Shown: piece by piece, positions 2 to 14,703 of the stretch
Layout of the letters: each line of letters starts with the position of its first letter
Numbering within the stretch: position 1 is the stretch's first letter
NCBI GenBank assembly: GCA_043814095.1
Contig: JBDRKI010000086.1
Coordinates: 1 to 14,703, forward strand
Direction of reading: 5' to 3'
Origin: Armatimonadota bacterium
GTDB lineage: Bacteria; Vulcanimicrobiota; JACPDS01; JBDRKI01
DNA length: 14,703 nt
Translations under genes and position numbers: made by a program
Notes under the pieces: model-generated
Told to the model about the DNA's origin: nothing
Databases searched by the model: none
Seen by the model: the letters and a program-made list of their open reading frames with translations, nothing else

Positions 2-3000
2 AAGACGGGTAATGTAAGGTTGAATTCCCATAAGACAGAAGCAATATTCACAGAATTAGGCGAGCTGGGTATTGTACCTAAAGGAGGCAGTTTCGCTCTT
101 GAAGTAAGGGATACTAAAGAAGGGCTCAAATTCTACATTAACAATACCCCTCTTACCAGAGAACAGACCGATACTGTCTTAAAATTAATAACAATGCACG
201 GTTTAAAGCCTAAGAATATAGATATAGCCGTAAGAAGCGGATTAGCCCTTCTTACTTCAGACGGTAAAGTAGTAAAAGTAATGCACCTGAAAGCTCCTAC
301 AGATACCGCTATTCCGGAATCTGTAAGAACGCATACTAAAACCAAAGCAAAAGCAAACCCTGATAATGTTATTGACTTTAATAAATACAAAGAAGCAAAG
401 AAGAAGAAAACTGAGAAGAAAAAGAAAGATAAAAGCGGCAAGCCGCCTTCCGCACCTACTGCTACAGGCACTGATAAACCGGCTCCGCATAAAGTGCCTG
501 AAAGAAAAATGCCCGCTGCCGCTAAAGAAGCGCTTGCCGCGGCTAAGAAGTGCGCAAAATCTACTCTTGATACTTTTAAAAAAGGTTTGGGTAATATTAT
601 ACCTCAACCCCAAGCTGCGGCTGAAGGGCCGGCAGGTGTAAGCCCGCAGGGTATGAGAGTCCCTGTTGTTCCTCCTATTATGCAGAATAATGCAAGCCAC
701 CCGGGAGGCATAAACCCAAGGCATACACAGACTACAGGCTTGGGAGAAATTGATACTAAATATATGCCTTCATATATAGCAACCGAACCGGTAACAGCCA
801 AGAGTGTATTAAATAAAACACCTACTATCAATAATCTTAATGAGCTAAAAGCAGAAGTAGATAAAACTTACAGCAGATATAAACTTCTTGTAAGCCATGC
901 GGGTGAAGATTATTTCAATGTTGATTCTTTTAAAGGATATCTGCAGGGCTGTAACGCGCTTGATAGATTAATAACCGATATTCTATGGCAGGCAGAGAAA
1001 ATCCCGGGCAGTGAAAAACTTATAGACCGGCTTGTTACTATCAGAGCAAATATGATTATTCTCTGCTATACGCCCCTTTTAAGAAAAGCCGACAACTTAT
1101 CAATGTTAGACATGCTAGATTTTAAAAACGCCTTTAAAAGAAATACTGCCAGCACAACACAAGAAGAGGTATATCTGGCTCTGAATGATCCTGAAAAATT
1201 AGAGATAGATCTGTTTATGCCCAGGCTTGAAAGAGCTTCAAACCTTTTAGATCAATTTAAAAACTTAAACGATCTTAGTTTTGAAGAATTAAAAGAATAT
1301 ATTGAAGCGTGTGAAGTAGCCTGGAATACTGCCGACAAACTTCTTAATCTGAAGAATCTAAAGCCTGCGGATATAGAATTGCTTAAAGCAGAAGCCGATA
1401 AAGCCGTTGAAAATTATAAAGAAGCACTTAAGATAACACTTGAACATGACGGGTTAAACTTAGGCGAAAAATTCTTAATACTCGCCGAGTTTATAAAGAA
1501 TACGCATGAAGAAGTCTGGAACCTTAAAGAACTGCAAAATGCAGCCATTCAGATTCTTGATGCTCTAGTAAAGAAACGCCAAGATGAAAGTAGATCCATT
1601 GAATCTTATACCAGATTAAAGATAAGGGTTAAAGATATATTTAACTCCGACACAAATGAAGCGATATCAGTAGCAATTATAAATACGCTAAGAAATTATC
1701 TTACCAAAAAACTAACAGAGAAAAGTGATAGAAGAACTTACCTGCAAATAGGGCCCTTCTTACAAGAATTCTCTGAAACAGAAAAACGAGGAAACAATAT
1801 TCCAAAGTCTCCTTCTAAAGATAATATTCCAAAACCGCCCTCTGCGGGAAATGCTTCTAAAAATACAAATTTGTGGAAAGCAACAAACGAATTCGCTAAA
1901 AAGGTAGCAGACGGCTTAAAGAATCTGCTGGGAACAGAAGCTGTCACTCCCGAAGGCATAAAAATGCCTGCAGGTATACCTGAAAAACCCGTATCAATGC
2001 GGATGGACGGCAGAGCACTCGGGGCTAATCCTGTAGTAGCTGTATTCAGAAAAGACTTATTACATGTATATTCCTTAAGCTCCAGGGAAAACTTCGGATA
2101 TTCTGATGCATTAGAATACGTAACCGGCTGCAGCCGGATTTATAAAGAATTAAGTACGGCTATAGATAATGCGGGAACAGATACTTCTACAAGGTCAACC
2201 TTAGCAGACCTTAAAAAAGAACTGGTGAATACTATATATCCCGACCTTATAAACTGCTTTGAAAAATTACCTAACCACGACCAGTCCCCGTTCCTGCTTG
2301 AGATTATTAATAACTGCCCTGATGAAATATTTAAAAAACACCTGAATCTTTTAATAACAAAAACTTCTACGCTGGGTGCTGTAGAAAGAGAAAATTTTGA
2401 CATCAAAAACGCGATAAAATACCTCAGGGTATGCAATACCATATATAAGAAAGCTTCCGCTTTTATAGAAGCAGAACAGGATTCTCCCAGTAGAACAAGC
2501 TTAAAACTTGCCCTTGCAGATTTAGATAAAGTCTATACCGATGTTATAAACTGTATTGTAAAATTAGGTAAGAACCAGCAGGCTAGATTTTTATTAAAAT
2601 TTTTATCAGACTGCCCTGATGAAATTTTCAAAAAACAGTTAAACACCCTTACCTTCCTTGCAAGAATAACTATAACCGATAGAATAAGCTCTTTAAATTT
2701 TTATAAAGAAAAGACAGTTTTAAGCGAAGCAGACTTCCAGCTTTATCTTGAAGAATGCAACCGCAGATTTGATGAGCTTACACGCTTAATAGAAATATTT
2801 GAAGGAAAATCAGAAGACAAAAATTACTTACTTGATAGAATAAGATTAATCTATAATGCAATTGATGCCGAATTTGTATTAAAAAATGAACAGGAAAAAA
2901 TAGTTAAAGAATATTACACGGATTTACTGAAAAAGGCGGATGCACTTGCTGATTCACAACAAAAAACAAAACTTATTAATCTTATACATAATTCCCTGCC

Positions 3001-6000
3001 TTCTAATGTAAAAAAACACTATGAAATAACCACTCATATATCACTGACACGGACCGGGAGCTTAACACCAGAGCAGACAGATATACTGAATATAATAAGG
3101 CATGATATGAGATCTCCTTTAGCTTCTCTGGATGCAGCCCTGCATTTATTAATAAGCGGTTATCCTAAATATGAGTCTGTTTTAGGATACATCCGCAGTG
3201 AATTCGACAAAATCTCAGAAAATTTTGCTAATATTTTCAGCCCGTATAATCCCGAGTTTAAAGATTCTAATTTTGAAGAAGTTCTGGACAAGAAATTTGA
3301 AGAGCTTACAAAGCATGTAACTGCTTTAGAAAGCGTGGTTAATGCAATTAACTTCAGCCAGTGGGGCAAACTTTCAGAAAAGGAAATAGATCTTATAAAT
3401 ACTGTAAAAAGAACATTACAGGATACAAAAGATACTTTTGAAAAGAGAACAGACTATCTTAACTTAACTACCGAATACATTCAGTCAAATATAAGTAAGG
3501 TCAACCTCAAAAGCCTGGTAGAAAAAATCTGGGAAGAATTCTGCTGGGAAAAGCCGAACGGTAAACCCGTTAATTTAAAAACAAACATATATGAAACCCT
3601 TCAAATACCCGGAAACCAGCTCTCCTTCATAGTCGTATTAAGAAACATATTCCAGGATATCATGGATGAATTTAAACAGAATAAGTCCGGCTACTATGAA
3701 ATAATTGTCGGCGCTCATAAAGACGGCACTTCCGGCAAATTCATATTAACCGTAGAAGACAACGGACCCGGCATACCCGAAAACAGAAGAGAGAGTGTAT
3801 TTGAAGGCGACTCCAGTAAAGGTGAAGGAAGAGGGTTCGGTCTTAAGAGAGTAAAGCGGCTCGTACATGACAACGGCGGTCGCATCTGGGCGGCAGAAAG
3901 AACATCCGAAGACGGGGAATCGGTACCCGGCAACAAATTTATAATGGTATTTGATAAGGGTAAAGCTCCGGACAGAACTCCCGACCCCGGCAGAAGAAAC
4001 CTCAACGGTATAAACGGGCAGGATCCCGGAATAGTACGTGATCCCCTATTTGACGGCGCAAGAACCCCGGTGCCGGCAGACACCTTAAATGAAACTAAAG
4101 CGCCTGCCGCAATTGATAAAGAAGCAGGCACGGAAGCACTCCATTTTATAAGACATGACTTTAACTCTCCGATTAACTCAATACGCGCCTTCCTTGATAT
4201 GGCTCAACTCATAAATTCCGGACTGCGTGATAATCCTGATTTTAAAACTGCTCTGGAAAAAGTTGATTATTTGGAAAAAGAATTTGATAATTACTTCCCG
4301 CACCCCGGCAGTATTAACAATTTTTCATCCTTCTTAGACTCGCTGGAGGGAAAATTTAGAAAATTAAGCTCTTCCATTAATGAGATTGACAGACTGTTAA
4401 ATACATTTGAAATTTATAGATCTTTAACCCCTGAAAAAATCAAAATCCTGCTAAATGACTATTATCATCCGGAAAAGGGCAGAAAATTTACTCCGGAAGA
4501 AGAGTTAGAAGCCGCTTTCGCCGCGGTTAAAAGCAATATAAATAGCGCAAAAAGAAATTTTGAAGCGGAATTAACTGATATTATTGATTTAACGCCCGCA
4601 AACATAATGAAAAACTCCAAACAGTTCAACCTTACCGAACTTGTGCAAAACACAGTCAACCGCACAGGCGGCAGAAGGATAAAATTTGAGACCCAAAACA
4701 ACTATCCTGTTGTTGCGAACGAAGAAAAAATCGGTTTTGTTGTTGCGGAATTAATTAATAACGCTTTGAGGATTTTTAATCAGGAAGGAAAAGGAGACAG
4801 AGTAGAAATCCTCATAGAAACCGGAAAAGAAGCAAATACAATACAGATTTTTGTATCAGACAACGGCCCGGGCGTCCCTGATAATATGAAGCGGCGGATC
4901 TTCGATGAAGGAGAAACCACCACCCAAAAATCAGGCGGCACTGGCGGCGGTTTATATGTAGCAAATAAAATCATAGCGGCGCATAAAGGAACAATTGAAG
5001 CTACGGACACCCCCGGCGGAGGCACTACTTTTGTAATTGAGCTTCCTTGTGGAGGAGAAATACCTCAACCCGAGATGAGCCTGACGGAAAGCTGGATAGA
5101 TAAGGCAACCCGCTACTGCGAGAACGGTCATATAACAGAAGGCATTAAAGATGCTTTTGTTATGCTGTTACAGGAATACTACGGAAAACAGGACCTAAGC
5201 CATGCCCAGCTTAAAGCATACCTCCATTTCTGCGATATTATAAATGAAAACCTAAGCAAGCTGGATTCCATTACAAGAGCAGAGTTTAAAACATTCCTGT
5301 CCGGTGAAGAAACTGGACATATAAATCCTTACCTTGATATTATACATAATATTACCAACCCCAACCCCAGGTTTGAAGTGCGCCAGAGAGTGAATTTCCT
5401 TATTGAATTTATTGAAACCTGTCCTGAAGAAATATTTGAAGCGCATCATGCAAAGCTTGCATACCTTGTAAACAATCTGGTTACAAACGCAGTTAAAGGA
5501 GGTCTTGATTATTTCAAAGATAATACTTCAGACCTTCAGGGACTGCTTTATTATTTCTCGGAATGCCAGGAAAAATTCCATGAAGTATCAAGATTAATAA
5601 CTCTATCAGAAAAAAGACACCAGATTGATCCCGGGAACAGGCTTCCCGAGCTGCGTAAAGATCTAGTAGATATATATTATAAGGATACTCTTGATAAGGC
5701 TGAGAGTCTTCCCGAAAAAGACAGAAGAGAATTCCTTGAACAGGCCATGGGCAGACTGCCCGATATGGCAAAAGAAAATAAAGATATCGCTAAGCGCCTG
5801 ACAGGCCATAGAGATGTTATAACTGCCACAAGCCCTGAAGGAAGAATACTGGCAGAAATAAGGCATAATTACAGGGCTCCTCTTAATTCATTAAAAGGGC
5901 GCTTAAGACATATAATCGAGAGCACACAATCTGCAGATCTTCAGGAAAAACTTGAGCCCCTGCTTAATGCGGCAGACAATCTCTATAATGATTTTGACCA

Positions 6001-9000
6001 TACATTCAGAGCCGGCAACCCCTTATTCACAACTTCAGGATTTAAAGATACCCTTGACCGGCAGTGCGGGAGAATGCTGGGATTACTCAATACCATTGAA
6101 ATAGGATTAAAGGAAATAAATTTCTCGGTTATACCCGCAGAGAATAAAGATCTGCGCTCAAATGTAGATGAATTACTAAAGACCCCTGCTAGTATAAGAA
6201 GAGAGTTTGATAAAAGGAATAAACTGCTTGATCTAAACCCCGGTTTTGTAGAAAGAAACAGGGTTAAAGTAGGTCTTAGCACTATAGTTGAGAAAGCTGC
6301 AACTGACTTTACACATATATATATAAACAATAAACGGGTTAAATTAATCATAGACATACCCGAAGGCCTTAATGTTTATGCACATCCGTTCTCACTTGTA
6401 TCTGTATTCAGGAATCTTCTGGAAAACTCTAAAAATGCTCTTGAGACAGTTAAACAAGATGAGTATGTAATATCCATTAAAGCCCGGGAAGATGCAAATA
6501 CCGGCAATATTATGGTTTCTTCGTCCGATAACGGACCCGGCGTACACGCAAAAAGAAAAAAGGCAATATTCACGGGAGACAGCACAACAAAAGGCGGCAC
6601 CGGATTCGGGCTACCCAAAATAATGGAGCTTGTTACCGCAAACGGCGGTACAATCAAAGAAAACGGAAAGTTCGGGAAAGGCGCTGAATTTAATATTGAA
6701 CTGCTTTCCAAATCCCCTACAGAAGCTTTTGAATCTAAAAGAGTATCTGTAACCAAAGCCCTTAAAGAACTTGCTGTCATAACACATGATTATAAGCCGA
6801 GAGTTAATGCCCTGCTTATGGCAGTCCGTAACATTAATACTGATTATCCGGAACTCCTTGCCAAAAACCCTGAATTAAATAATATATTTACGGAACTTCT
6901 TGAAACAGCCGAAAAATTAAACCAGGCTGTAAACAGACTCCATGAAAAATACAGCAAGAAGTTTAAAGCTGCTTGTGATTATGATTCCAGAACAGTATCT
7001 CTTGCTGAATTAACTGCCTTTAAAACAGAACTGAATGCCTTTAAAAAAGACGCAAGAAAAATAAAAGAGCTTAATGCTGAATTTAACAGAGTTCTATCTT
7101 TTGAAATAATAGAGCAAGAGCCTACTGGCCGGCTGCAGACTGATCTTATTCTTATGCAGGAAGCCGTCAAAGAATTTACAGAGACAAATCTCTTTAACTT
7201 AACGCCTGAATATATAAGCTCAAATAAAACCAGGATTAACCTTCAGAAATTCTTTGAAGCATTAATGTTCAGAACAGCCAAAGGGCGGAAAATATCGCGC
7301 CAAACAAAAGACGGTATAATCACCCTGCAGGCAGAACTTGATCCCGTAAGAGGAAACAGGCCATCTACACTTACCGTAAGCCTGCCACAGAACTCCTTCT
7401 TATACGGTAATAACCACTCCTTATTAGTTATATTCGATAACCTTATAGCAAACTCTCAGAATATGATAAGTCTTGCAGACAGAGCCGCCTATAATATTAA
7501 TATAGCTATAACACCTGACCGCAAAACCAATAAAACCATATTTAACTACTCGGATAACGGATTAGGCATTGAAGCAGATAAAAAACAGAAGGTGTTTAAC
7601 GGATATAGCTCAAGAGAAGACGGCACGGGATCAGGCCTCCAGAAAGTAGCAGAACAGACAGAAGCACACGGCGGCAAGATATATGAAAACGGAGACTACG
7701 GCGAAGGTGCAAAATTTGTACTGACAATCCCGACAATGCCTCCTGAAGCATATCCTTTCGGCAAGGCTAAGGCTGAAAACACAAAGGCAAAGCCCGGAAG
7801 AGCTCCTTTTGAGAAAACAGAACTTCAGAAGGGTACTGTCGGTTCCGACCTGACACAGGCAAGAGCAAAAGCAAATAAACCCAGAGAATACAGATCCCAT
7901 ACCGGCATGCCTGTAAAAAGCGCAGACGGCACAATAACTACGCCTCATAGCAGTAAAAACATACACATATTAAGAAAACTTAAGGAAAAGGTAATATTAG
8001 CAATCCTTAATAAGAAATCAGCTGTTGAACAGACTCTTAAAGAACACAAAATAAAGGTAAAAGCAAATGAATTCTACGATGCAGAAACAAAAGAATACCG
8101 TTTATACCATTTGGTTGATCATATAATAAACAGCGGGTACAACGGGCCTGAGAATGCAATGCTATTCTGTGTTAAATTAATAGGGCTCTACAGGAAGAAA
8201 CAGGGTGAGCTTTTCACTAGATCAGAAATAGCCTTGCTGGAAGCAGGTGCTGTAAGGGCCGCGGTACACGATGTGCTCCAGGAAAAACAGCCTAACCTGC
8301 ATGATACTTATGGCAGTAATTCTATACTTGCCAAATACATTCTGGAATTAAAAGAAGATTTCCTTATGGATTTCTTCTGGAATAACCAAAAATTCGGAGT
8401 AAACAAAGATGAACTACTAGATGCAATATACTATAGATTACGCTGGTTTAGCCGCCAGACCGCTGAAGATTTCAAGCTGGCATTCGAAAATAAAAGACCT
8501 GAACTTACACTTGAACAGAAAAAAGCACAGCTTCTTGTATGTAACGGATTCTTTACAGAAGTTACAAAAGTAGGGAGTAATGCTACCGACGATCAAAAGC
8601 TTAAAGGGAACTTAAGATTCGTAAAAAGTACCTTGTTGCACAATTATTATGATTTTATCCTGCTTGATTTTGAAGGAATTCGAGATTCAGATAAAAGTAG
8701 AGCGCTTGTTGAATACTTCCATAATAATATACCTGCCGAAGTAAAAAGACACTACGAGATACAGACTGACCATCCGAATTATGAAAAGCTGCAGGAGATA
8801 AGGCATGGGCTTAGGAGTCATATTGCAAGTCTTAAAATGAACTTAACTTCTTTAGCAAGGCGCACAAAAGACAGTCCCGAAATTAAAGAAAAAGCACTCT
8901 CTATAGTTGATAAAGCCGACGCCTTAGAAGCATATGAAACCGGTTTCAGTGATGATAACTACACTGGAGAAAACTTAAATGAACCTCAATTCAGTAATTT

Positions 9001-12000
9001 AATAAAAGCTCAACTAAGATTACTGACTACGCATACTCTTGAAATAAATGCTTTAATGCTGGAGGCAATGCCTGAAAAAATATTTAATCTGCCTGCCCAA
9101 ATAATAGAAAAAATACTGGAATACGCAGACGAAAAAACTGCAGAGAGAATAAAAAGCAGACTGCCTGAGAATATTACTGAATACCTCAATACGGAAAAAG
9201 ATATGCCTTTCAAGGCCGTTAAATCTACTTTTATTTTATTTAAAGAAACCGTTCTTGATAATAACACCAATGTGGGATTCAGTATATTAGGAAACAAGGA
9301 CTGCAGAAAGGTATTATCTCCTCAAGACTTCTCCTTTATAATCGAAAACATTATCCAGAACTCCATAAGCGCGTTTAACAGGCAGATTGCAGAAGATCCT
9401 GAGAGATACAAAGATAAACAGTATGAAGTTACCGTACAGTTTGCAGGCGCAAAAGAAGGTGAAGATGGTCCTGTAAATATAACATTAAGCGATAACGGCC
9501 CCGGCATACCTCCTGCTCTGCCTTCTGCAGATGGCAATATACCGAAAGTTAATAAAGAAACCATCTGGTATGCAGGCGTAACAGAAGGCGGGAAAGGATA
9601 CGGCCTTAGCCTTGTAAAGGAAAAAGTGGAAAAAGCAGGCGGCAGAATCTATGAAAACGGCAAATACGGAGAAGGCGTGCAGTTCTGTATAGAACTCCCC
9701 GGCAAAGAATCTAAACCGGCTGAGGTTAAACCCGAAGTTAAAATAACAGAGAAAGCCCCCGGAGATGGATTAATAAAAGGAACCGAGATAAATCTACAGC
9801 AGAGCGGCAGAAGTAAGGTACCGGGCAGCCCTGCGGAAACAAAAATAGGGCTTACAGAGACGCCAATTTCCTCATCGGAATTCGGCGGCAAAGCACCCGG
9901 CGCGGCCGGTATGTCTACAAGAAAGCCCGGCATGCATAACGGGGTAAATATAGGGATACCCATTTCCAAGCTTAACGTATTTCACGGGATCTTAAGAAAA
10001 ATAACCAAAGGATTGGAAAAACCAACCGTCAGAGTAGATAATTTTGAAATATTTTTCTACACACTTGCTAAAGAGAATGCAGAAGTAGCGGTAGAGATCT
10101 TAGAAAGATTGCTGGAAATAAATAATGAACAGGGATGGAATTTAAATAACCTTATTGATATATATAACCAAATAGCGCGTCTTGCGTCCGTAAGATTCCC
10201 TGAAGGAAGAGAAGCGCTTAAATCCTTATTTAACTGCGGTAATATAGAAAGAATAAAAGAAAATATTGCTAAAGTTTCTAGAGAAGAAGAATATAACCCA
10301 ATACTTAAAAAAGATAAAATATTAACCGCTAAAAACGGTAGAACCCCGGATATGGAAGTTGAACAAAGCCCCTTTGTAAATTCCATACTTAGTTCGCCCA
10401 TTTTGAGCGGCTTAGACAAAGATACCATGGGGCAATTAGATGTCTTTGCCCGCAGGACATCGAATCTGGCAAAACATCTTGCGACAAAACACAACCACCC
10501 GGATCCTAAGCTCCTTACTTTCAATATAGAAAAAGGATTAAATATAAATAAAAAGTTTAAAAAAGTTTTAAATATTGAAGAATTAGATGCTCTGGAAAAG
10601 ACAGCCACGGTATTTAACAGAAAATTCTATAAAGCTAAAACAAGTATGATCTTAACTAAATTAGAGCTGGACAGCATGCCTGTAAAGGATGCGCATAATA
10701 TGATTGTGACCTTCCTTGTCGCGGCATTTAATTATACTTTTTCTTCCCATTACAAAGTGGAAAACTTCATTGCTGAACTGCGCGAGCTCCAGGAAATATA
10801 CTTAGAAAACACAAAACAGTTCCAGAAGACCCTTACCCCTGAAGAAAATAAGATAAACAGTATAATCCTGGGAGTTACCCGCCAAGACCAGCGCCTGGCA
10901 ATAATAAAAGAGATAAAAAAGCTTCCTTCTAAATTAATAAATGATCTTATTGATAATAACTGCATAATTGTATTTGCGGAAGATGACACACTCTCAGAAC
11001 CTGTTTTAAATATGTATCTGGACAGAGAATCCGGACATCCCGAAAGTAAAAAATTAGTAATACTGGGACGGGATTCCAGAATGGATCTTACCTCGGCAAT
11101 TTTCAGGGAAACATCCTACCGCATACTGCATTCAAAAGGATTAGGATTCTTAAAAGAAGAGATTGAAAATATACAGACTGTTGCGGAAAAAGAATTCGGC
11201 CTTAAAGGAGAAGATTTTGAAGAATTCTTTGCCTCATCTTTCGGAGCTTTTTTAACAAATACTTATAAGACATATTTTTATACGGAAGTACTGTTGAAGG
11301 ATCTGTTTAAATGTCCGCTTATTAAAGGCAGGGGTATTAAAAAAGACTCTGCCAATAAACCCCTTGAAGAAATAATCAGGCTCTTAACTGAAATATATGA
11401 AAAATCAGGCGGAAAAGACATACCTTACGGAGAACAGCTTAATATAAAAGAAGTTCACACGGTTAAGCAGGAGCCGGCAAAAGACCACGGTAAAAGATGG
11501 ATGGGCGGAAAACCGGATAAAGAAATAACCCCTAATCCGGAATTTGAACGCCCGGGCCTTATGCCGGAAACACCTCCGGATGCCGAAATAAGCGAATACA
11601 ACAAGAAGCTTCTGCTGGCTTTATGGGAAACGGAAGGTAATAGAGTAGAGGCGGCAAAAACTTTAAATGCAGCCCCAAAAACCATCGGAACGCATGCCAA
11701 TAATTTCATAGAAAGCGCAACGGCCAGACAGCTGGAAGCATGCGCGCTTCAATTAAGCAAAGAATCCGGAAAACATATTACGGCAACCCAGCTTCTTAAG
11801 TACTGCGGTTATCAAAAATTCAACCGCTTGCTAACAACGCTCGGAAAAAATCATGAATCAATTAATCCGGAGTTTATCCAGACCACTCTCGGAATTCAAG
11901 GATTAAGTCCGAGCAAATGCAGGCTTTACATATTAAAATTAAAAGACACAGGGGCTGACTTTGAGAAAGAATTCAATCTTTCAGAACAGCAGATTAACTC

Positions 12001-14701
12001 AATCCTTGTTATTTTATCTAAATGTACCAAAGTAGACAGGGGCACTTTTTATATTCCGAAAACAACAGAAATTGAAAACGAAGCAAAGACAGAAGGAACA
12101 TCCAAAGCAGAAACTGCAAAAAAAATTAAAGAAATAAAAGACACTGAATACCATAATACTCTGCAAGAGATAGGAAAAAATTACGAAAATTTATATGCGG
12201 CTTTAAGGTCAACTTTAAGTCAAAGACCGGAAACTATAATCGGACTTAGAAATTACATCCGAGAATTAAAACAAAAAGGCATTGATTTTAAAGCTCAATA
12301 CAATTTAACTGCCAAAGAGGTCGAAGCAATATTACTCATACTAAAAAGTGCCCATCTAAGCAAACTAAAAGCACAGTATATGGCCGGCAAACAAAAATTC
12401 GCACCGAATCAACCCGGACTTACTTTCCCGCAGGAAGCACTGCCGGCAGAGCGAGCTACCGGTCCCCTGGCAGAAAAAGTTCAAGAGCCTAAATTAGAGT
12501 CTGCTATTGATACGATAATTACTATGGCAAAACAGCCGCCGGCAGAAACAAAAACAGCAAAACCCTCAGGTGCAGCTGGTGGTGAAAAATACACCATAGA
12601 ACAAAAAGCAGCAGCAATGATACAGATACATAGACAAACCGGCAGATACAGTTCAACAGAAGCTGCAAAAATTTTGAAAAAAGAAAGCAAAGAAATAATA
12701 AATGAGAGCATTATCAGACAACCACTTAACAAATTTATAGAAGAAGCTTCTTTTGAAAAATTACAAGAATGTGCTATAAAAGTTTCTGAAATACTTGGAG
12801 AAACTGTAACGGACGGCGAACTTCTGCTTGCCTGTACCACTAAACATTTTAGAGCCGCATTAACTGACTTAGGAAACCATCTTGCTAAATTTGATAATAG
12901 AATAGAAGCATCGGACATACAAGACATCCTAAAAAAACACAACATCAGAGAAGAAGCTTTTAATGAGTATTTAATAAAATTAAGTAAAAGCAATGCAAAT
13001 CTATCAAAAACGCATAAACTATCCCATGAACAGATAGATAATTTGGCTAAATTACTGACCCCCGATACAGATACTGTGCTCAGACTTCTTATTGAAGATC
13101 CCTATAAATTACAGCCGGAGTTTACAGCAGTACTTAGAGGAGTCTGTGGAGACAGAGCTGTAACCGGAGCCATAATTAAGTTAAGAAACCTAATAAAAAC
13201 ACATAGAGAAGTAGTTGAAAAACTCCTTGCAGATCCACTGGGGGTTGATAAAACTCAAAAACTGCTAAATACACTTGATCCTAAACAAATAGGAATAACA
13301 AAAGCTCCTGCAGAAGCCTCGCCTGAGCAAGTAGTTACATCAACTGTATCTACGGGTGATATCATACACGATAATCTGTCTATAACCGAAAGAGATATAG
13401 AAACTTTATATCACCATTGGATGAACCCGCATATAACTCAGGTTCCAAATTTAACAAATGTAAAAAATCGTTGTAGTCAATTAGCCAAAAACAAGCAACG
13501 GGAACTAATATACAGATTAAACGCACTGGCTAAAAAACGCGGAAAAAACAAAAAGATTGATATGCCTGCTCTTACATGGCTTCTTAGTCTTAATCGAAAT
13601 ATAACCTTAAAAGAAAAAGCCCCTCCTATTGAAGGATCTACATGGAGAAGCTACCCCAAGTCCGCACAGCCGGCTTCTGTGCCTTCGCCAAAACCAGAAC
13701 CCGTATCTGCACCGGAGCAGATTGAAAAAGCGGCATCCGCAAAAGAAAGTATCATAGAAGAAAAATATACTATTGAACAAAAAATATCTGCTATGATTAA
13801 AGCACACAGGCAAACGAAAATTTACAGTCCCGTCAGGGCGGCTCAGATATTAGAAGAAGAACATGGAACTCAAATAAAATCAAATTCTGTCGGCCAGCAT
13901 CTTAACAAATTCATAGAAAAACCAACTACTACAATTGAAATTTTAAATGCTTTAGCAAAAAAACTCGGTGTAAAAACCGAAGAGGTAATACTTGCCTGCT
14001 GTAAACAGCAGTTTAGAGTTTCATTAATTGAATTAGGCAAAGAATTAGCGGATAAAAATATCGGCCTCCCGGAAATAAGGAGCATCTTAAATTCGCATTC
14101 TATTAGAAAACTCCCGGATGAAGTTTTCTATAGATATATCTCAAAACTAAGAGACTGCGAAGCAGATCTTTCAAAAGATTACAATCTCAACCGTGAACAG
14201 ATAACCTATTTAGCCGGTTTATTCGAAAAAGGTAATACCCCGGATAAACTTACAACTGGCGGGACAAGCGCACCCTTGCAGGCTTCCAAAGCAAAAGCCA
14301 ATAAGACAAGAAAAAGAGGGGTATTCCCTGAACCAACACGCCCTGAAAAATTGAGTCATGAAAAAGCGGAATTCAGCCAGTGGGATGACGGCCTTACCGC
14401 TAAAGAACATCTGGTAATATACCTTCTGGAAAACAATAAAAACACTTTTCTTAAAAACCCCAAAAAGTATGTCGCGGATCTTATACACACCTACTGCCAG
14501 AAAAAAATCAAAGCTATTGATAAACTCATACAGCTTATCAAGAATAAAGAGCTTGTTATTCAGGGATTCAAAACCAGAGACATTAATATATTATTAACCG
14601 CGCTGGGCCAAGTTAGAGATGATATATCTAAAAAATCAGGGACAGCGACAGTAAAACAAGACACAGAACCCCAAAAAATAACGGAACCAACGCAAGCAGT
14701 A
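2..14701 (+). CDS. Giant multidomain protein, partial at both ends (>=4900 aa): five histidine-kinase-like modules, helical repeats, degenerate zincin-like domain, HTH-containing repeats
   Basis: Manual translation of frame +2 runs from KTGNVRLNSHKTEAIF... to ...KITEPTQAV with no stop. All recognisable motifs (five DNGxG boxes, five H-boxes, HTH) lie in this one frame, and composition is Lys/Glu/Leu/Ile-rich as for a soluble protein. Start and stop codons lie outside the window. Confidence 0.96.
900..1565 (+). repeat. Helical protein repeat family A, copies 1-2 (divergent)
   Basis: YLQGC (938) ... CYTPLLRKADNL, and YIEAC (1298) ... FLILAEFIKNTHEEVW. Spacing is 120 aa, and motif order matches the clearer copies at 2080-3028. 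Boundaries approximate. Confidence 0.6.
1796..1843 (+). repeat. Short imperfect tandem duplication (27-nt period) in a linker
   Basis: aatattccaaagtctccttct (NIPKSPS) at 1796 and aatattccaaaaccgccctct (NIPKPPS) at 1823. Confidence 0.7.
2080..3028 (+). repeat. Helical protein repeat family A, copies 3-5
   Basis: RENF..YVTGC (2117)..IYPDLINCFEKL..FLLEIINNCPDEIFKKHLN; RENF..YLRVC (2420)..VYTDVINCIVKL..FLLKFLSDCPDEIFKKQLN; YLEEC (2744)..YYTDLLKKADAL. Periods are 101 and 108 aa. The DNA actgccctgatgaaat occurs identically at 2313 and 2610. Confidence 0.85.
3083..3952 (+). other. Histidine kinase module 1 (HisKA-like + HATPase_c) within the giant CDS
   Basis: H-box IIRHDMRSPLASL (His codon 3101); N-box VLRNIFQD (3644; second Asn replaced by Asp); G1 VEDNGPGIP (Asp 3758); F/G2 VFEGDSSKGEGRGFGL; then NGGRIW...GNKFIMVF. 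Confidence 0.9.
4136..5047 (+). other. Histidine kinase module 2 (HisKA-like + HATPase_c)
   Basis: H-box FIRHDFNSPINSI (His 4154); N-box VAELINNALR (Glu 4748); G1 VSDNGPGVP (Asp 4859); RIFDEGETTTQKSGGTGGGL; C-terminus AHKGTIEATDTPGGGTTFVIELP, the most canonical of the five. Confidence 0.93.
5170..5800 (+). repeat. Helical protein repeat family A, copies 6-7
   Basis: YLHFC (5219)..PYLDII..FLIEFIETCPEEIF (Cys 5420); YFSEC (5552)..YYKDTLDKAESL. Period 111 aa. Boundaries approximate. Confidence 0.75.
5846..6706 (+). other. Histidine kinase module 3 (HisKA-like + HATPase_c)
   Basis: H-box EIRHNYRAPLNSL (His 5864); N-box VFRNLLENSKNA (6413); G1 SDNGPGV (Asp 6527); IFTGDSTTKGGTGFGL; NGGTIKENGKFGKGAEFNIEL. 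Confidence 0.9.
6767..7732 (+). other. Histidine kinase module 4 (HisKA-like + HATPase_c)
   Basis: H-box VITHDYKPRVNAL (His 6785); N-box VIFDNLIANSQN (7439); G1 SDNGLGIE (Asp 7553); VFNGYSSREDGTGSGL; AHGGKIYENGDYGEGAKFVLTIP. Confidence 0.88.
8480..8761 (+). repeat. Helical protein repeat family A, copy 8 (divergent)
   Basis: QLLVC (Cys 8540)..YYDFILL..HNNIPAEVKRHYEI (8720-8761), matching HNSLPSNVKKHYEI (2987-3028) at the end of copy 5. Confidence 0.65.
8786..9700 (+). other. Histidine kinase module 5 (divergent H-box + HATPase_c)
   Basis: H-box EIRHGLRSHIASL (His 8804); N-box IIENIIQNSISA (9347); G1 LSDNGPGIP (Asp 9491); IWYAGVTEGGKGYGL; AGGRIYENGKYGEGVQFCIELP. Confidence 0.87.
10880..11260 (+). 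other. Degenerate zincin (ATLF / Pro-Pro endopeptidase-like) metallopeptidase-fold domain, probably inactive
   Basis: Ordered motifs IKKLPSKLINDLIDNNCIIVF ... KKLVIL ... AIFRETSYRI (11105-11119, at the expected HExxH position) ... EEFFASSFGAFL (11219-11254, resembling the EFFAESF helix). Pattern match by eye only. Confidence 0.5.
11594..14224 (+). repeat. Protein repeat family B (~140-160 aa): three full copies (11594-12016, 12584-13057, 13760-14224) plus a C-terminal half copy (12146-12343)
   Basis: EKYTIEQKAAAMIQIHRQT..EAAKIL..LNKFIE..LLLAC vs EKYTIEQKISAMIKAHRQT..RAAQIL..LNKFIE..VILAC vs EAAKTL..ANNFIE..LLKYC. Shared tails: YILKLKDTGADFEKEFNLSEQQI / YIRELKQKGIDFKAQYNLTAKEV / YLIKLSKSNANLSKTHKLSHEQI / YISKLRDCEADLSKDYNLNREQI. 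Confidence 0.85.
11609..11686 (+). other. Fis-type (HTH_8-like) helix-turn-helix
   Basis: LLLALWETEGNRVEAAKTLNAAPKTI fits the Fis/NtrC C-terminal pattern ALxxxxGNxxxAAxxLGxxxxTL, with the turn Gly replaced by Asn. Confidence 0.7.
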
Positions 14702-14703
14702 CC

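Follow-up and report, generated by a model that had tools for sequence, protein, structure and literature searches.

MARTX-type toxins are very large proteins that lack a Sec signal and carry an array of effector cassettes freed by an internal protease after delivery. Giant bacterial genes, apart from those encoding nonribosomal peptide and polyketide synthases (NRPS/PKS) and adhesins, are barely understood, and bacterial proteins of more than 5000 amino acids (aa) have been grouped mainly as NRPS/PKS and surface proteins (PMC11573180). Interspersed lethal-factor-like zincins are described as the commonest theme of the polyvalent proteins and were proposed to process them (Iyer et al. 2017, PMC5512222), and cleavage by embedded peptidases was proposed for the giant "archaeovorins" of Omnitrophota (West-Roberts et al. 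2023, bioRxiv 10.1101/2023.11.21.568195). Here we describe a 14,703-nucleotide (nt) stretch of DNA from an Armatimonadota bacterium (GenBank assembly GCA_043814095.1, contig JBDRKI010000086.1), referred to below as the window, by which we mean the whole stretch that was analysed. What the window covers is the interior of a single genuine protein-coding gene, chromosomal and at least 8,565 codons long, whose product is of a known kind, a giant multi-enzyme cargo protein with embedded peptidases.

A giant reading frame with histidine-kinase cores

The window is the entire contig C86 of an assembly of 2.50 Mb in 129 contigs (39.3% GC, rated 98.97% complete). Its frame +2 runs through 4900 codons (nt 2-14701) with no stop on machine translation, against 520, 391, 115, 351 and 240 stops in the other five frames, and GC at codon positions 1/2/3 (0.476/0.348/0.337) follows the pattern expected for coding DNA. 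An earlier sequence-only reading of this DNA had noted the uninterrupted frame, held that the true gene is larger than the window and advised extending the contig in search of a start and a stop. Extension bears out the larger gene: the last 141 nt of the window coincide with the start of contig C106, on which the same frame continues for 3711 codons (aa 4855-4900 of C86 are aa 1-46 of C106, at 100% identity and in frame), so that the open reading frame (ORF) reaches at least 8565 aa (4854 + 3711), with both ends still open. The same reading had called the ORF hidden, which is an artefact of an ORF track listing closed ORFs only; a 4901-aa partial protein (P0002) from the 14,703-nt contig had already been called in a public protein collection. 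Promoter-like sites inside the window (33, against 34.2 in shuffles) and terminator-like sites (19, against 16.8) are about as frequent as in shuffled sequence, which is consistent with one long product. The features that define the gene are the following.

2..14701 (+): internal fragment of the giant ORF, 4900 codons, open at both ends (stop-free frame)
3074..3961 (+): kinase core 1, His1034 (nt 3101-3103), catalytic domain nt 3620-3955 (HisKA at aa 1025-1072, HATPase_c)
4142..5050 (+): kinase core 2, His1385 (nt 4154-4156), catalytic domain nt 4718-5050 (HATPase_c, 80.3 bits)
5840..6703 (+): kinase core 3, His1955 (nt 5864-5866), catalytic domain nt 6392-6703 (Pfam, motifs)
6761..7735 (+): kinase core 4, His2262 (nt 6785-6787), catalytic domain nt 7418-7735 (Pfam, motifs)
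8780..9703 (+): kinase core 5, His2935 (nt 8804-8806), catalytic domain nt 9329-9703 (Pfam, motifs)
14563..14703 (+): exact 141-nt overlap with the start of contig C106, where the frame continues

Signalling cargo had been suspected in the sequence-only reading, and five complete histidine-kinase cores are indeed present in the window. As judged from their motifs, all five are intact HisKA-type cores, each with the phospho-acceptor His in its H-box, a G1 box (DNGPG or DNGLG; DxGxG) and a G2 box (GxGxGL), and with 219-256 residues between the H-box His and G1 (window 3101-9703). Pfam HATPase_c matches all five at 42.7-80.3 bits, above the cut-off of 26.4, which makes 5 of the genome's 37 matches to this model; HisKA reaches 30.8 bits on the whole protein (cut-off 26.9), the single modules staying below the cut-off (20.2, 16.8 and 12.2). 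Core 1 reads HDMRSP, DNGPG and GRGFGL at its three boxes, core 4 has the most divergent H-box of the five (HDYKPR) and DNGLG as its G1 box, and core 5 is the one closest to the kinase cores of a paralog on contig C32 (40-47% identity to C32 aa 2729-2895 and 3139-3283). Core 2 matches solved kinases overall at E 1e-11 to 1e-12, its closest solved chains being YycG/WalK and HK853-type kinases (PDB 2c2a, 3sl2; E 4.5e-12).

Although every core of the window shares its H-box, G1 and G2 boxes with ordinary HisKA/HATPase_c sensor kinases (HK853, WalK/YycG), the window differs from these in placing five cores on one chain with no sensor, transmembrane (TM), receiver or HPt domain. By its alignment to HK853 (query 20-137 against chain 44-71), core 2 also carries some 90 extra residues between the H-box and the second DHp helix, which implies a longer hairpin in its dimerisation domain. 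Pfam finds no HAMP, PAS or GAF input domain in the window, which has no TM-like segment, and in the paralog family described below, over some 24,000 aa, receiver and HPt domains are absent along with PAS and GAF; across eight family pieces of that total length, not a single 19-aa segment reaches a Kyte-Doolittle mean of 1.8. The protein is soluble, with no TM-like stretch and no signal peptide at the known N-termini of the family. The genome's 26 receiver domains are all located outside giant ORFs, and the one closest to the family (C127:16938-17276) is still about 9 kb away from the C127 head. In a tree of 34 of the 37 HATPase_c domains of the genome (three weak or partial matches, on C1, C121 and C127, were left out), the eight domains from giant ORFs fall on one side of a branch (support 94/91; 96% of bootstrap trees), and this grouping shows that the kinase modules multiplied inside the family.

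A chromosomal paralog family, its zincins and its linkers

By sequence comparison, the gene is a member of a chromosomal paralog family (at least seven paralogs) in which conserved N-terminal regions are followed by variable cargo. By our sum, the family's pieces add up to about 29,000 aa, which corresponds to about 3.5% of the assembly, and their scattering over at least 14 contig ends of a metagenome-assembled genome (MAG) rated "99% complete" is a practical warning in itself. Besides the window and its continuation on C106, the pieces are as follows.

C32 (-): 5533 aa, ends at a stop
C90 (-): 3893 aa, has a start, runs via another 141-nt overlap into C30 (1208 aa)
C63: 1153 + 1804 aa
C78 (-): 2075 aa, ends at a stop
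C61: 1474 aa
C56, C127, C48, C8 and C73: short family starts

A head of about 230 aa is common to five genes (41-64% identity), and the 600 or so residues after it recur in C78, in C73 and in an 894-aa gene that lies complete on C120. The middles are variable and hold M16 peptidase pairs (two of them on C90), HEAT repeats and at least 11 zincins, with which the three known tails (C32, C78 and the 419-aa ORF end on C90) also end; C32 carries three HATPase_c domains and one HATPase_c_5. Low-molecular-weight (LMW) phosphatase domains (LMWPc) occur among the pieces as well: the C106 continuation of the window's ORF has three, with intact CX5R(S/T) loops, and the loop is found in seven LMWPc copies altogether, the other four being on C63, C30 and C32. 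Kinase, phosphatase, M16 and zincin domains therefore stand on the same set of ORFs, with several unrelated enzymes per chain. The family genes are chromosomal and lie beside ordinary housekeeping genes; neighbours of the pieces include asparagine synthase and a B12-radical SAM protein (C32), an aldehyde ferredoxin oxidoreductase (C78), a class-V aminotransferase and glycosyltransferases, and rpoB is on the same contig as one family head (C48).

The recurrent domain of about 190 aa, of which jackhmmer and alignment revealed at least 11 copies in the genome, is quite probably a zincin of the lethal-factor/PPEP type. The HExxH motif is intact in five of the 11 aligned copies (two on C32, three on C78), and most copies retain, about 40 residues further on, an E-F-F-A stretch whose Glu presumably corresponds to the third zinc ligand of M34 enzymes. 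An AlphaFold2 (AF2) model built from a 10-copy alignment (pLDDT 70.3) retrieves with Foldseek, at ranks 1-42, no structures other than PPEP-1/Zmp1, PPEP-2, PPEP-3 and anthrax lethal factor, the last of these first appearing at rank 38; the best match stands at E 0.016, probability 0.99 and TM-score 0.39 and covers about 185 of about 195 columns. The VIA aligner gives Z 6.2 (rmsd 5.2, 139 aligned), all of its top 32 rows being M34 enzymes and unrelated structures setting in from Z 4.2. At the level of sequence, Pfam ATLF (PF07737) has its sole match on C30, at 23.6 bits and thus under its cut-off of 27.4, with none in the window; the zincin profile reaches PPEP-2 among PDB sequences at E 0.26 only, and phmmer with an active copy returned no PPEP match from the same sequences. 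The window's own copy (aa 3560-3760) has RETSY at the HExxH position and retains EEFFASSF downstream; both zinc-binding His are absent, and on its sequence we rate this copy as catalytically dead.

The sequence-only reading had described a giant multi-enzyme ORF built as beads on a string, unlike NRPS/PKS or adhesin repeats. This layout is real, with folded modules between Pro-rich linkers, and Pfam finds no NRPS/PKS or adhesin-repeat domains in the window. All nine linker intervals it had proposed are compositionally distinct (P+A+K+G 0.45 against 0.24 in the rest); pooled, they contain 12.8% Pro against 3.1%, and 17% hydrophobic residues against 34%. Linkers and remaining modules are given here in their order along the window.

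2..316 (+): small N-terminal module, aa 1-105, three near-identical genome copies (jackhmmer), no Pfam match
300..790 (+): linker 1, Pro/Ala/Lys/Gly-rich (P+A+K+G 0.47, Pro 12%)
788..1786 (+): orphan block, aa 263-595, no Pfam match above noise, no family paralog
1780..2030 (+): linker 2 (P+A+K+G 0.45)
2030..3031 (+): block before kinase core 1, aa 677-1010, paralogous to aa ~1740-1997, no Pfam match
3960..4135 (+): linker 3 (P+A+K+G 0.42, Pro 14%)
7735..7960 (+): linker 4 (composition)
7958..8701 (+): orphan block, aa 2653-2900, no Pfam match, no paralog
9700..9960 (+): linker 5 (composition)
9962..10681 (+): orphan block, aa 3321-3560, no Pfam match, no paralog
10679..11281 (+): degenerate zincin copy, "domX" (jackhmmer family, alignment, AF2 model)
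11455..11590 (+): linker 6 (Pro 17%)
11597..12031 (+): two-lobed helical unit, copy 1 (jackhmmer, alignment)
12098..12349 (+): helical unit, partial copy, second lobe only (jackhmmer, alignment)
12400..12583 (+): linker 7 (composition)
12584..13081 (+): two-lobed helical unit, copy 2, modelled (AF2 pLDDT 88.7, pTM 0.82, ten helices)
13615..13760 (+): linker 8 (Pro 18%)
13760..14251 (+): two-lobed helical unit, copy 3, 46% identical to copy 2
14225..14380 (+): linker 9 (composition)

The helical unit of about 160 aa is present in four copies, one of them partial, within aa 3866-4750. It has no Pfam match at E up to 10 and no Foldseek match, and the winged-helix and helix-turn-helix structures retrieved with its model (MntR, DtxR-like and LysR-type DNA-binding domains, Roco COR) reach only Z 4.2-5.8, which is background for helical models. 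The DNA-binding cargo put forward in the sequence-only reading is therefore left without a Pfam match and with fold matches at background (best Z 5.8); that this unit might bind DNA is a possibility, not a finding. The block before kinase core 1 and the stretch that precedes core 3 are 26-31% identical (E down to 2.6e-12, tile BLASTP), and the ESM Atlas offered no usable match for aa 263-595 or for the family head. Within the giant ORF, the opposite strand has three ORFs of 155-183 aa (257-724(-), 10057-10608(-) and 12481-12993(-)); stops in antisense frame -1 number only 115, a frequent situation opposite long coding sequences, and there is no sign that these ORFs are genes.

Searches at every level tried found no relatives beyond generic kinase similarity, and the family is so far known from this uncultured groundwater bacterium alone. 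Among public proteins of 2695-8575 aa, the whole window protein retrieved only itself and its own paralog; aa 3261-4900, compared with shorter proteins, had none among 8000 scored candidates at E 0.001; and the family head region (856 aa) retrieved only its own paralogs from public proteins. The N-terminal 676 aa were absent from 40 relatives' genomes and the head profile from 300 genomes of the phylum, in which the zincin profile gave eight weak matches (E 1e-6 to 7.5e-4) to ORFs of about 290-620 aa. Against 1.84 billion representatives the zincin profile gave 15 matches, and all seven at E <=1e-10 were to the genome itself. A contig scan of other genomes yielded three loci in unrelated MAGs, all matching at the level of the kinase domain, and NCBIfam and PHROGs gave kinase and ArsC/LMWPc-type matches only. 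Sparse sampling of the host lineage contributes to this lack, since the reference set includes no other genome from the same taxonomic family and one further genome from the same order, 75% complete. The family may be fast-evolving or lineage-specific, as conflict systems tend to be.

Further observations concern the surroundings of the family pieces. On C90, an ORF end of 419 aa with a zincin at its end (11799-13055(-)) lies 130 nt before the family start, and on C73 one of 703 aa with HEAT repeats (1703-3811(-)) lies 12 nt before the family start; both run in from the edge of their contig, and with ORF ends directly upstream of family starts, at least some family genes seem to be in tandem. 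On C63, the 1153-aa ORF (ending at 3460) and the 1804-aa ORF (from 3451) are one ORF, frameshifted at about 3449-3463 inside a zincin copy in an A-rich stretch, AAATATAAAGAAAAGAC, and the domain motifs continue across the shift, which could be an assembly error, a pseudogene or slippage. Just upstream of the head on C8 (C8:5377-7037(+)) is a 290-aa reverse transcriptase scoring 236.8 bits on the NCBIfam retron St85 model (cut-off 235). The ORF after it, of 279 aa, has a NAGPA phosphodiester-glycosidase domain, and the pair is possibly a retron defence unit; a diversity-generating retroelement was discarded, as the enzyme is of the retron St85 type and BLASTN found no template/variable repeat pair.

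Upstream of all five heads stand (G)TTAACA boxes with an exact 11-bp spacing, followed by TATAAT. The arrays are at the following positions.

L007:11700-11770(-) (C90)
L030:8470-8560(+)
L031:8080-8180(+)
L036:2600-2700(-)
L032:7120-7240(+) (C8)

The strict form TTAACA-N5-TTAACA has 189 matches in the genome on both strands, against about 2 expected by our estimate from hexamer frequency, and none of them is in C86 or C106. A family-specific OmpR-type regulon was rejected because the arrays are genome-wide, which suggests a general promoter element or the site of a global regulator, and the heads thus look like normal, independently promoted genes with no special regulon.

Possible roles of the giant protein

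We tentatively favour, at somewhat short of an even chance, an exported or delivered carrier of cassettes that is cut at its linkers, a cellular counterpart of polyvalent and multi-effector proteins. The conserved N-terminal part would serve handling or export by a non-Sec route, and the variable string of enzyme cassettes would act on phosphorylation signalling, through its kinases and phosphatases, and on proteins, through its peptidases, in another cell or in the envelope. Interspersed active zincins would cut the string, plausibly in the Pro-rich linkers, and so free the cassettes, whereas the copy in the window would survive as a remnant with a structural or substrate-binding role. Such a carrier is favoured because the logic of the family matches that of polyvalent and multi-effector proteins and the zincin processing proposed for them.

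A number of observations weigh against delivery and processing of this kind. In the family pieces examined there is no signal peptide, RTX repeat, known trafficking domain or adjoining secretion gene (the window's own flanks lie beyond the contig), and neither TssC (the type VI secretion sheath) nor VirB4 nor a C39 peptidase was found in the 98.97%-complete genome, in which six TolC-type ORFs and four secretin matches, located elsewhere, represent possible export routes. Histidine kinases are not known to act as delivered effectors, and intact H-boxes fit ordinary intracellular phosphotransfer. The zincin assignment is moderate in view of its fold scores, its model confidence and the absence of a significant PPEP sequence match, and the window's own zincin lacks both zinc-binding His. 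Pro-Pro dipeptides number 8 in the window against 9.8 expected; seven of the eight are in linkers, with no surrounding consensus, so that linker cleavage, and with it the idea that Pro-Pro marks the cleavage sites, is without sequence support. Finally, the C63 paralog is frameshifted and part of the family may thus be decaying, and the contigs from an RNA library that hint at transcription (see below) may derive from contaminating DNA.

A cytoplasmic hub of many kinases and phosphatases is unlikely in our view, if far from negligible. The sensor-less cores would pair via their dimerisation helices and feed the cell's own response regulators, the phosphatases would reset the system and the helical units would dock partners. 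This would account for the phospho-acceptor His and ATP-binding boxes kept in all five cores of a chain with no TM segment or signal peptide, and it agrees with the lack of dedicated secretion genes next to family pieces, with the presence of 26 receiver domains to 37 HATPase_c matches in the genome and with internal promoter and terminator counts that are consistent with one long product. However, not one receiver, HPt, PAS or GAF domain occurs in the family sequence, the receivers are all outside the giant ORFs and only one comes as near as 9 kb or so to a head. A hub would also leave at least 11 zincins, the M16 peptidases and the pairing of a conserved head with variable cargo unexplained, and the complete lack of relatives sits badly with it, core signalling machinery being usually conserved among relatives.

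The delivered carrier can also be put in a bolder form, which we consider improbable as it stands: private chromosomal "polyproteins", exported by a non-Sec route and cut in their Pro-rich linkers by their own zincins, whose freed kinase cores and LMW phosphatases would rewire the two-component signalling of another cell. The host would be free-living or predatory, and each protein would consist of a conserved head and up to tens of cassettes. If this were true, these would be the first histidine kinases to act as delivered effectors and phage and plasmid polyvalent proteins would have in this family their cellular counterpart or origin. Should the zincins release modules, a bacterial polyprotein could be studied in a tractable setting, one genome defining both the protease copies and the linkers that are their candidate substrates.

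There is little to recommend a giant surface or extracellular structural protein, whether of the adhesin/matrix type or an archaeovorin-like predation protein. Most bacterial proteins of more than 5000 aa that are not NRPS/PKS are surface proteins (PMC11573180), HEAT repeats and peptidases also occur in archaeovorins (bioRxiv 10.1101/2023.11.21.568195), and the genome has its secretins and TolC-type proteins. Yet Pfam finds no Ig, cadherin, beta-helix, dockerin or RTX repeats, nor a SecA DEAD domain, glycosyl hydrolase or glycosyl transferase, the TM-like segments are missing, and the modules are mostly helical units and ATP-dependent enzymes of the cytoplasmic type.

More doubtful still is a polyvalent protein in the classical sense, which a phage, plasmid or conjugative element would encode and deliver along with its DNA on invasion. 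The sequence-only reading had drawn the polyvalent analogy, and one part of it stands, in that lethal-factor-like zincins are interspersed across the family among many unrelated enzymatic domains, as in polyvalent proteins (PMC5512222); the family is also strain- or lineage-specific, and the retron-type reverse transcriptase beside one head hints at a variable region. The phage or conjugative origin is the part that fails. Paralogs share contigs with rpoB (C48), asparagine synthase and radical SAM genes (C32) and the aldehyde ferredoxin oxidoreductase gene (C78), PHROGs match kinase modules only, and no VirB4 emerged from the genome, whose fragmented assembly could conceal a small integrated element. 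Nor does Pfam find the typical methyltransferase, ADP-ribosyltransferase, primase or anti-restriction cargo. The main text of PMC5512222 contains neither "histidine kinase" nor "phosphatase" (0 occurrences of each), and a single genome carries at least seven paralogs.

The soundness of the assembly bears on all of these readings. The first 695 nt of C86 are 95% identical to C32:54522-55216(-) and 91% to C63:1-524, and C86 and C63 start at the same point of this repeat; a contig that begins within a near-identical repeat points to an assembly break there. The C86 and C32 copies differ by 32 mismatches, 19 of them at third codon positions, and in 10 of 231 aa, a bias that fits purifying selection on both. 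From nt 696 to nt 14562, the window has no match of 100 nt or longer to any other part of the genome, which makes a repeat-driven misjoin inside the window unlikely. The tetranucleotide correlation of the window with the rest of the genome is 0.95, within the 0.915-0.993 seen for 50 other contigs of 8-25 kb, the lowest of which is C63, itself a giant-gene contig. Among public sequencing data, two groundwater runs, each from a different study and made from a DNA library in one case and an RNA library in the other, contain scattered low-coverage contigs of 150-336 nt that match the gene at 99% identity or more; none spans the window or its ends, and an odd joint of 417 to 12681 among them has one side of 21 nt, below the reliability limit of the tool. 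These fragments show that the sequence exists elsewhere and hint at transcription, with no bearing on continuity. An in-frame chimera of separate genes, or a contig from another organism, is thus highly improbable: the opening repeat shared with two other contigs, the lack of a spanning public contig and a composition toward the low end of the range would allow it, but random joins cannot give 4900 stop-free codons, the only stretches of 100 nt or more on which a misjoin could occur are the terminal repeat and the overlap with C106, the window is tied to this genome by its paralogy with C32, which is a 56-kb contig in the same bin, other giant pieces are equally slightly atypical in composition, and the near-identical fragments come from two independent studies.

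Comparison with known giant and multi-effector proteins

Like MARTX-type toxins, the window's protein is a very large chain of independent cassettes without a Sec signal. It differs from them in lacking RTX repeats (RTX_C matches only at noise level, E 0.14) and a cysteine protease domain, and the family's cassettes are kinases and phosphatases, with no type I secretion genes beside the pieces examined.

The embedded zincins compare with PPEPs and lethal factor (MEROPS M34; PDB 5a0p, 6fpc, 9g3t, 1j7n) in size, at about 190 aa, in a model that spans nearly the whole PPEP chain and, in five family copies, in the HExxH motif and the conserved downstream E-F-F-A helix. Known PPEPs, in contrast, are small secreted M34 enzymes reported from Firmicutes only (PMC8610288), whereas the giant proteins described here, from another phylum, contain the domain at least 11 times. 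Similarity in sequence stays below significance, the window's copy is without its zinc ligands and a Pro-Pro specificity is only hypothetical.

Archaeovorins resemble the family in being giant ORFs with many enzymes, encoded by uncultured bacteria of groundwater type with small genomes and fragmented by short-read assembly, and in their HEAT repeats, peptidases and proposed cleavage into smaller products. The resemblance to the Omnitrophota giants suggested by the sequence-only reading does not extend to their defining features: archaeovorins are described with numerous TM regions, SecA DEAD domains, glycosyl transferases and hydrolases, C39/S8 peptidases and an adjacent type II/IV-like secretion locus, whereas no TM-like segment and, among the Pfam matches of the family pieces scanned, no SecA DEAD or preprotein-binding and no glycosyl transferase or hydrolase domain is present; C39 and S8 peptidases were not found either, nor a secretion locus of that type beside the pieces examined. 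Protein searches gave no sequence relatives.

The polyvalent proteins (PMC5512222) match the family in logic. They too combine many unrelated enzymatic domains on one polypeptide, they too have a recurrent lethal-factor-like zincin (HExxH and a downstream Glu helix), interspersed and also terminal, and they too are lineage-specific and fast-evolving, with self-processing by the zincin proposed. They differ in being encoded by mobile elements and in having 2-15 domains, whereas the family here is chromosomal, beside housekeeping genes, with at least seven paralogs that share N-terminal regions, is far larger (at least 8,565 aa) and carries histidine-kinase cores, LMW phosphatases and M16 peptidases as its cargo, none of which was found in the main text of PMC5512222.

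Judged by the titles listed, a literature search on tandem, multiple or dual kinase domains found no description of five cores on one soluble chain. New here are the five sensor-less kinase cores on one chain, the LMW phosphatases and the PPEP/lethal-factor-like zincins outside Firmicutes, together with a chromosomal multi-copy family that totally lacks relatives. Omnitrophota giants and polyvalent proteins, the best-described cases, being different in content, the locus represents a third flavour of giant bacterial gene, a chromosomal multi-copy family with signalling-enzyme cargo.

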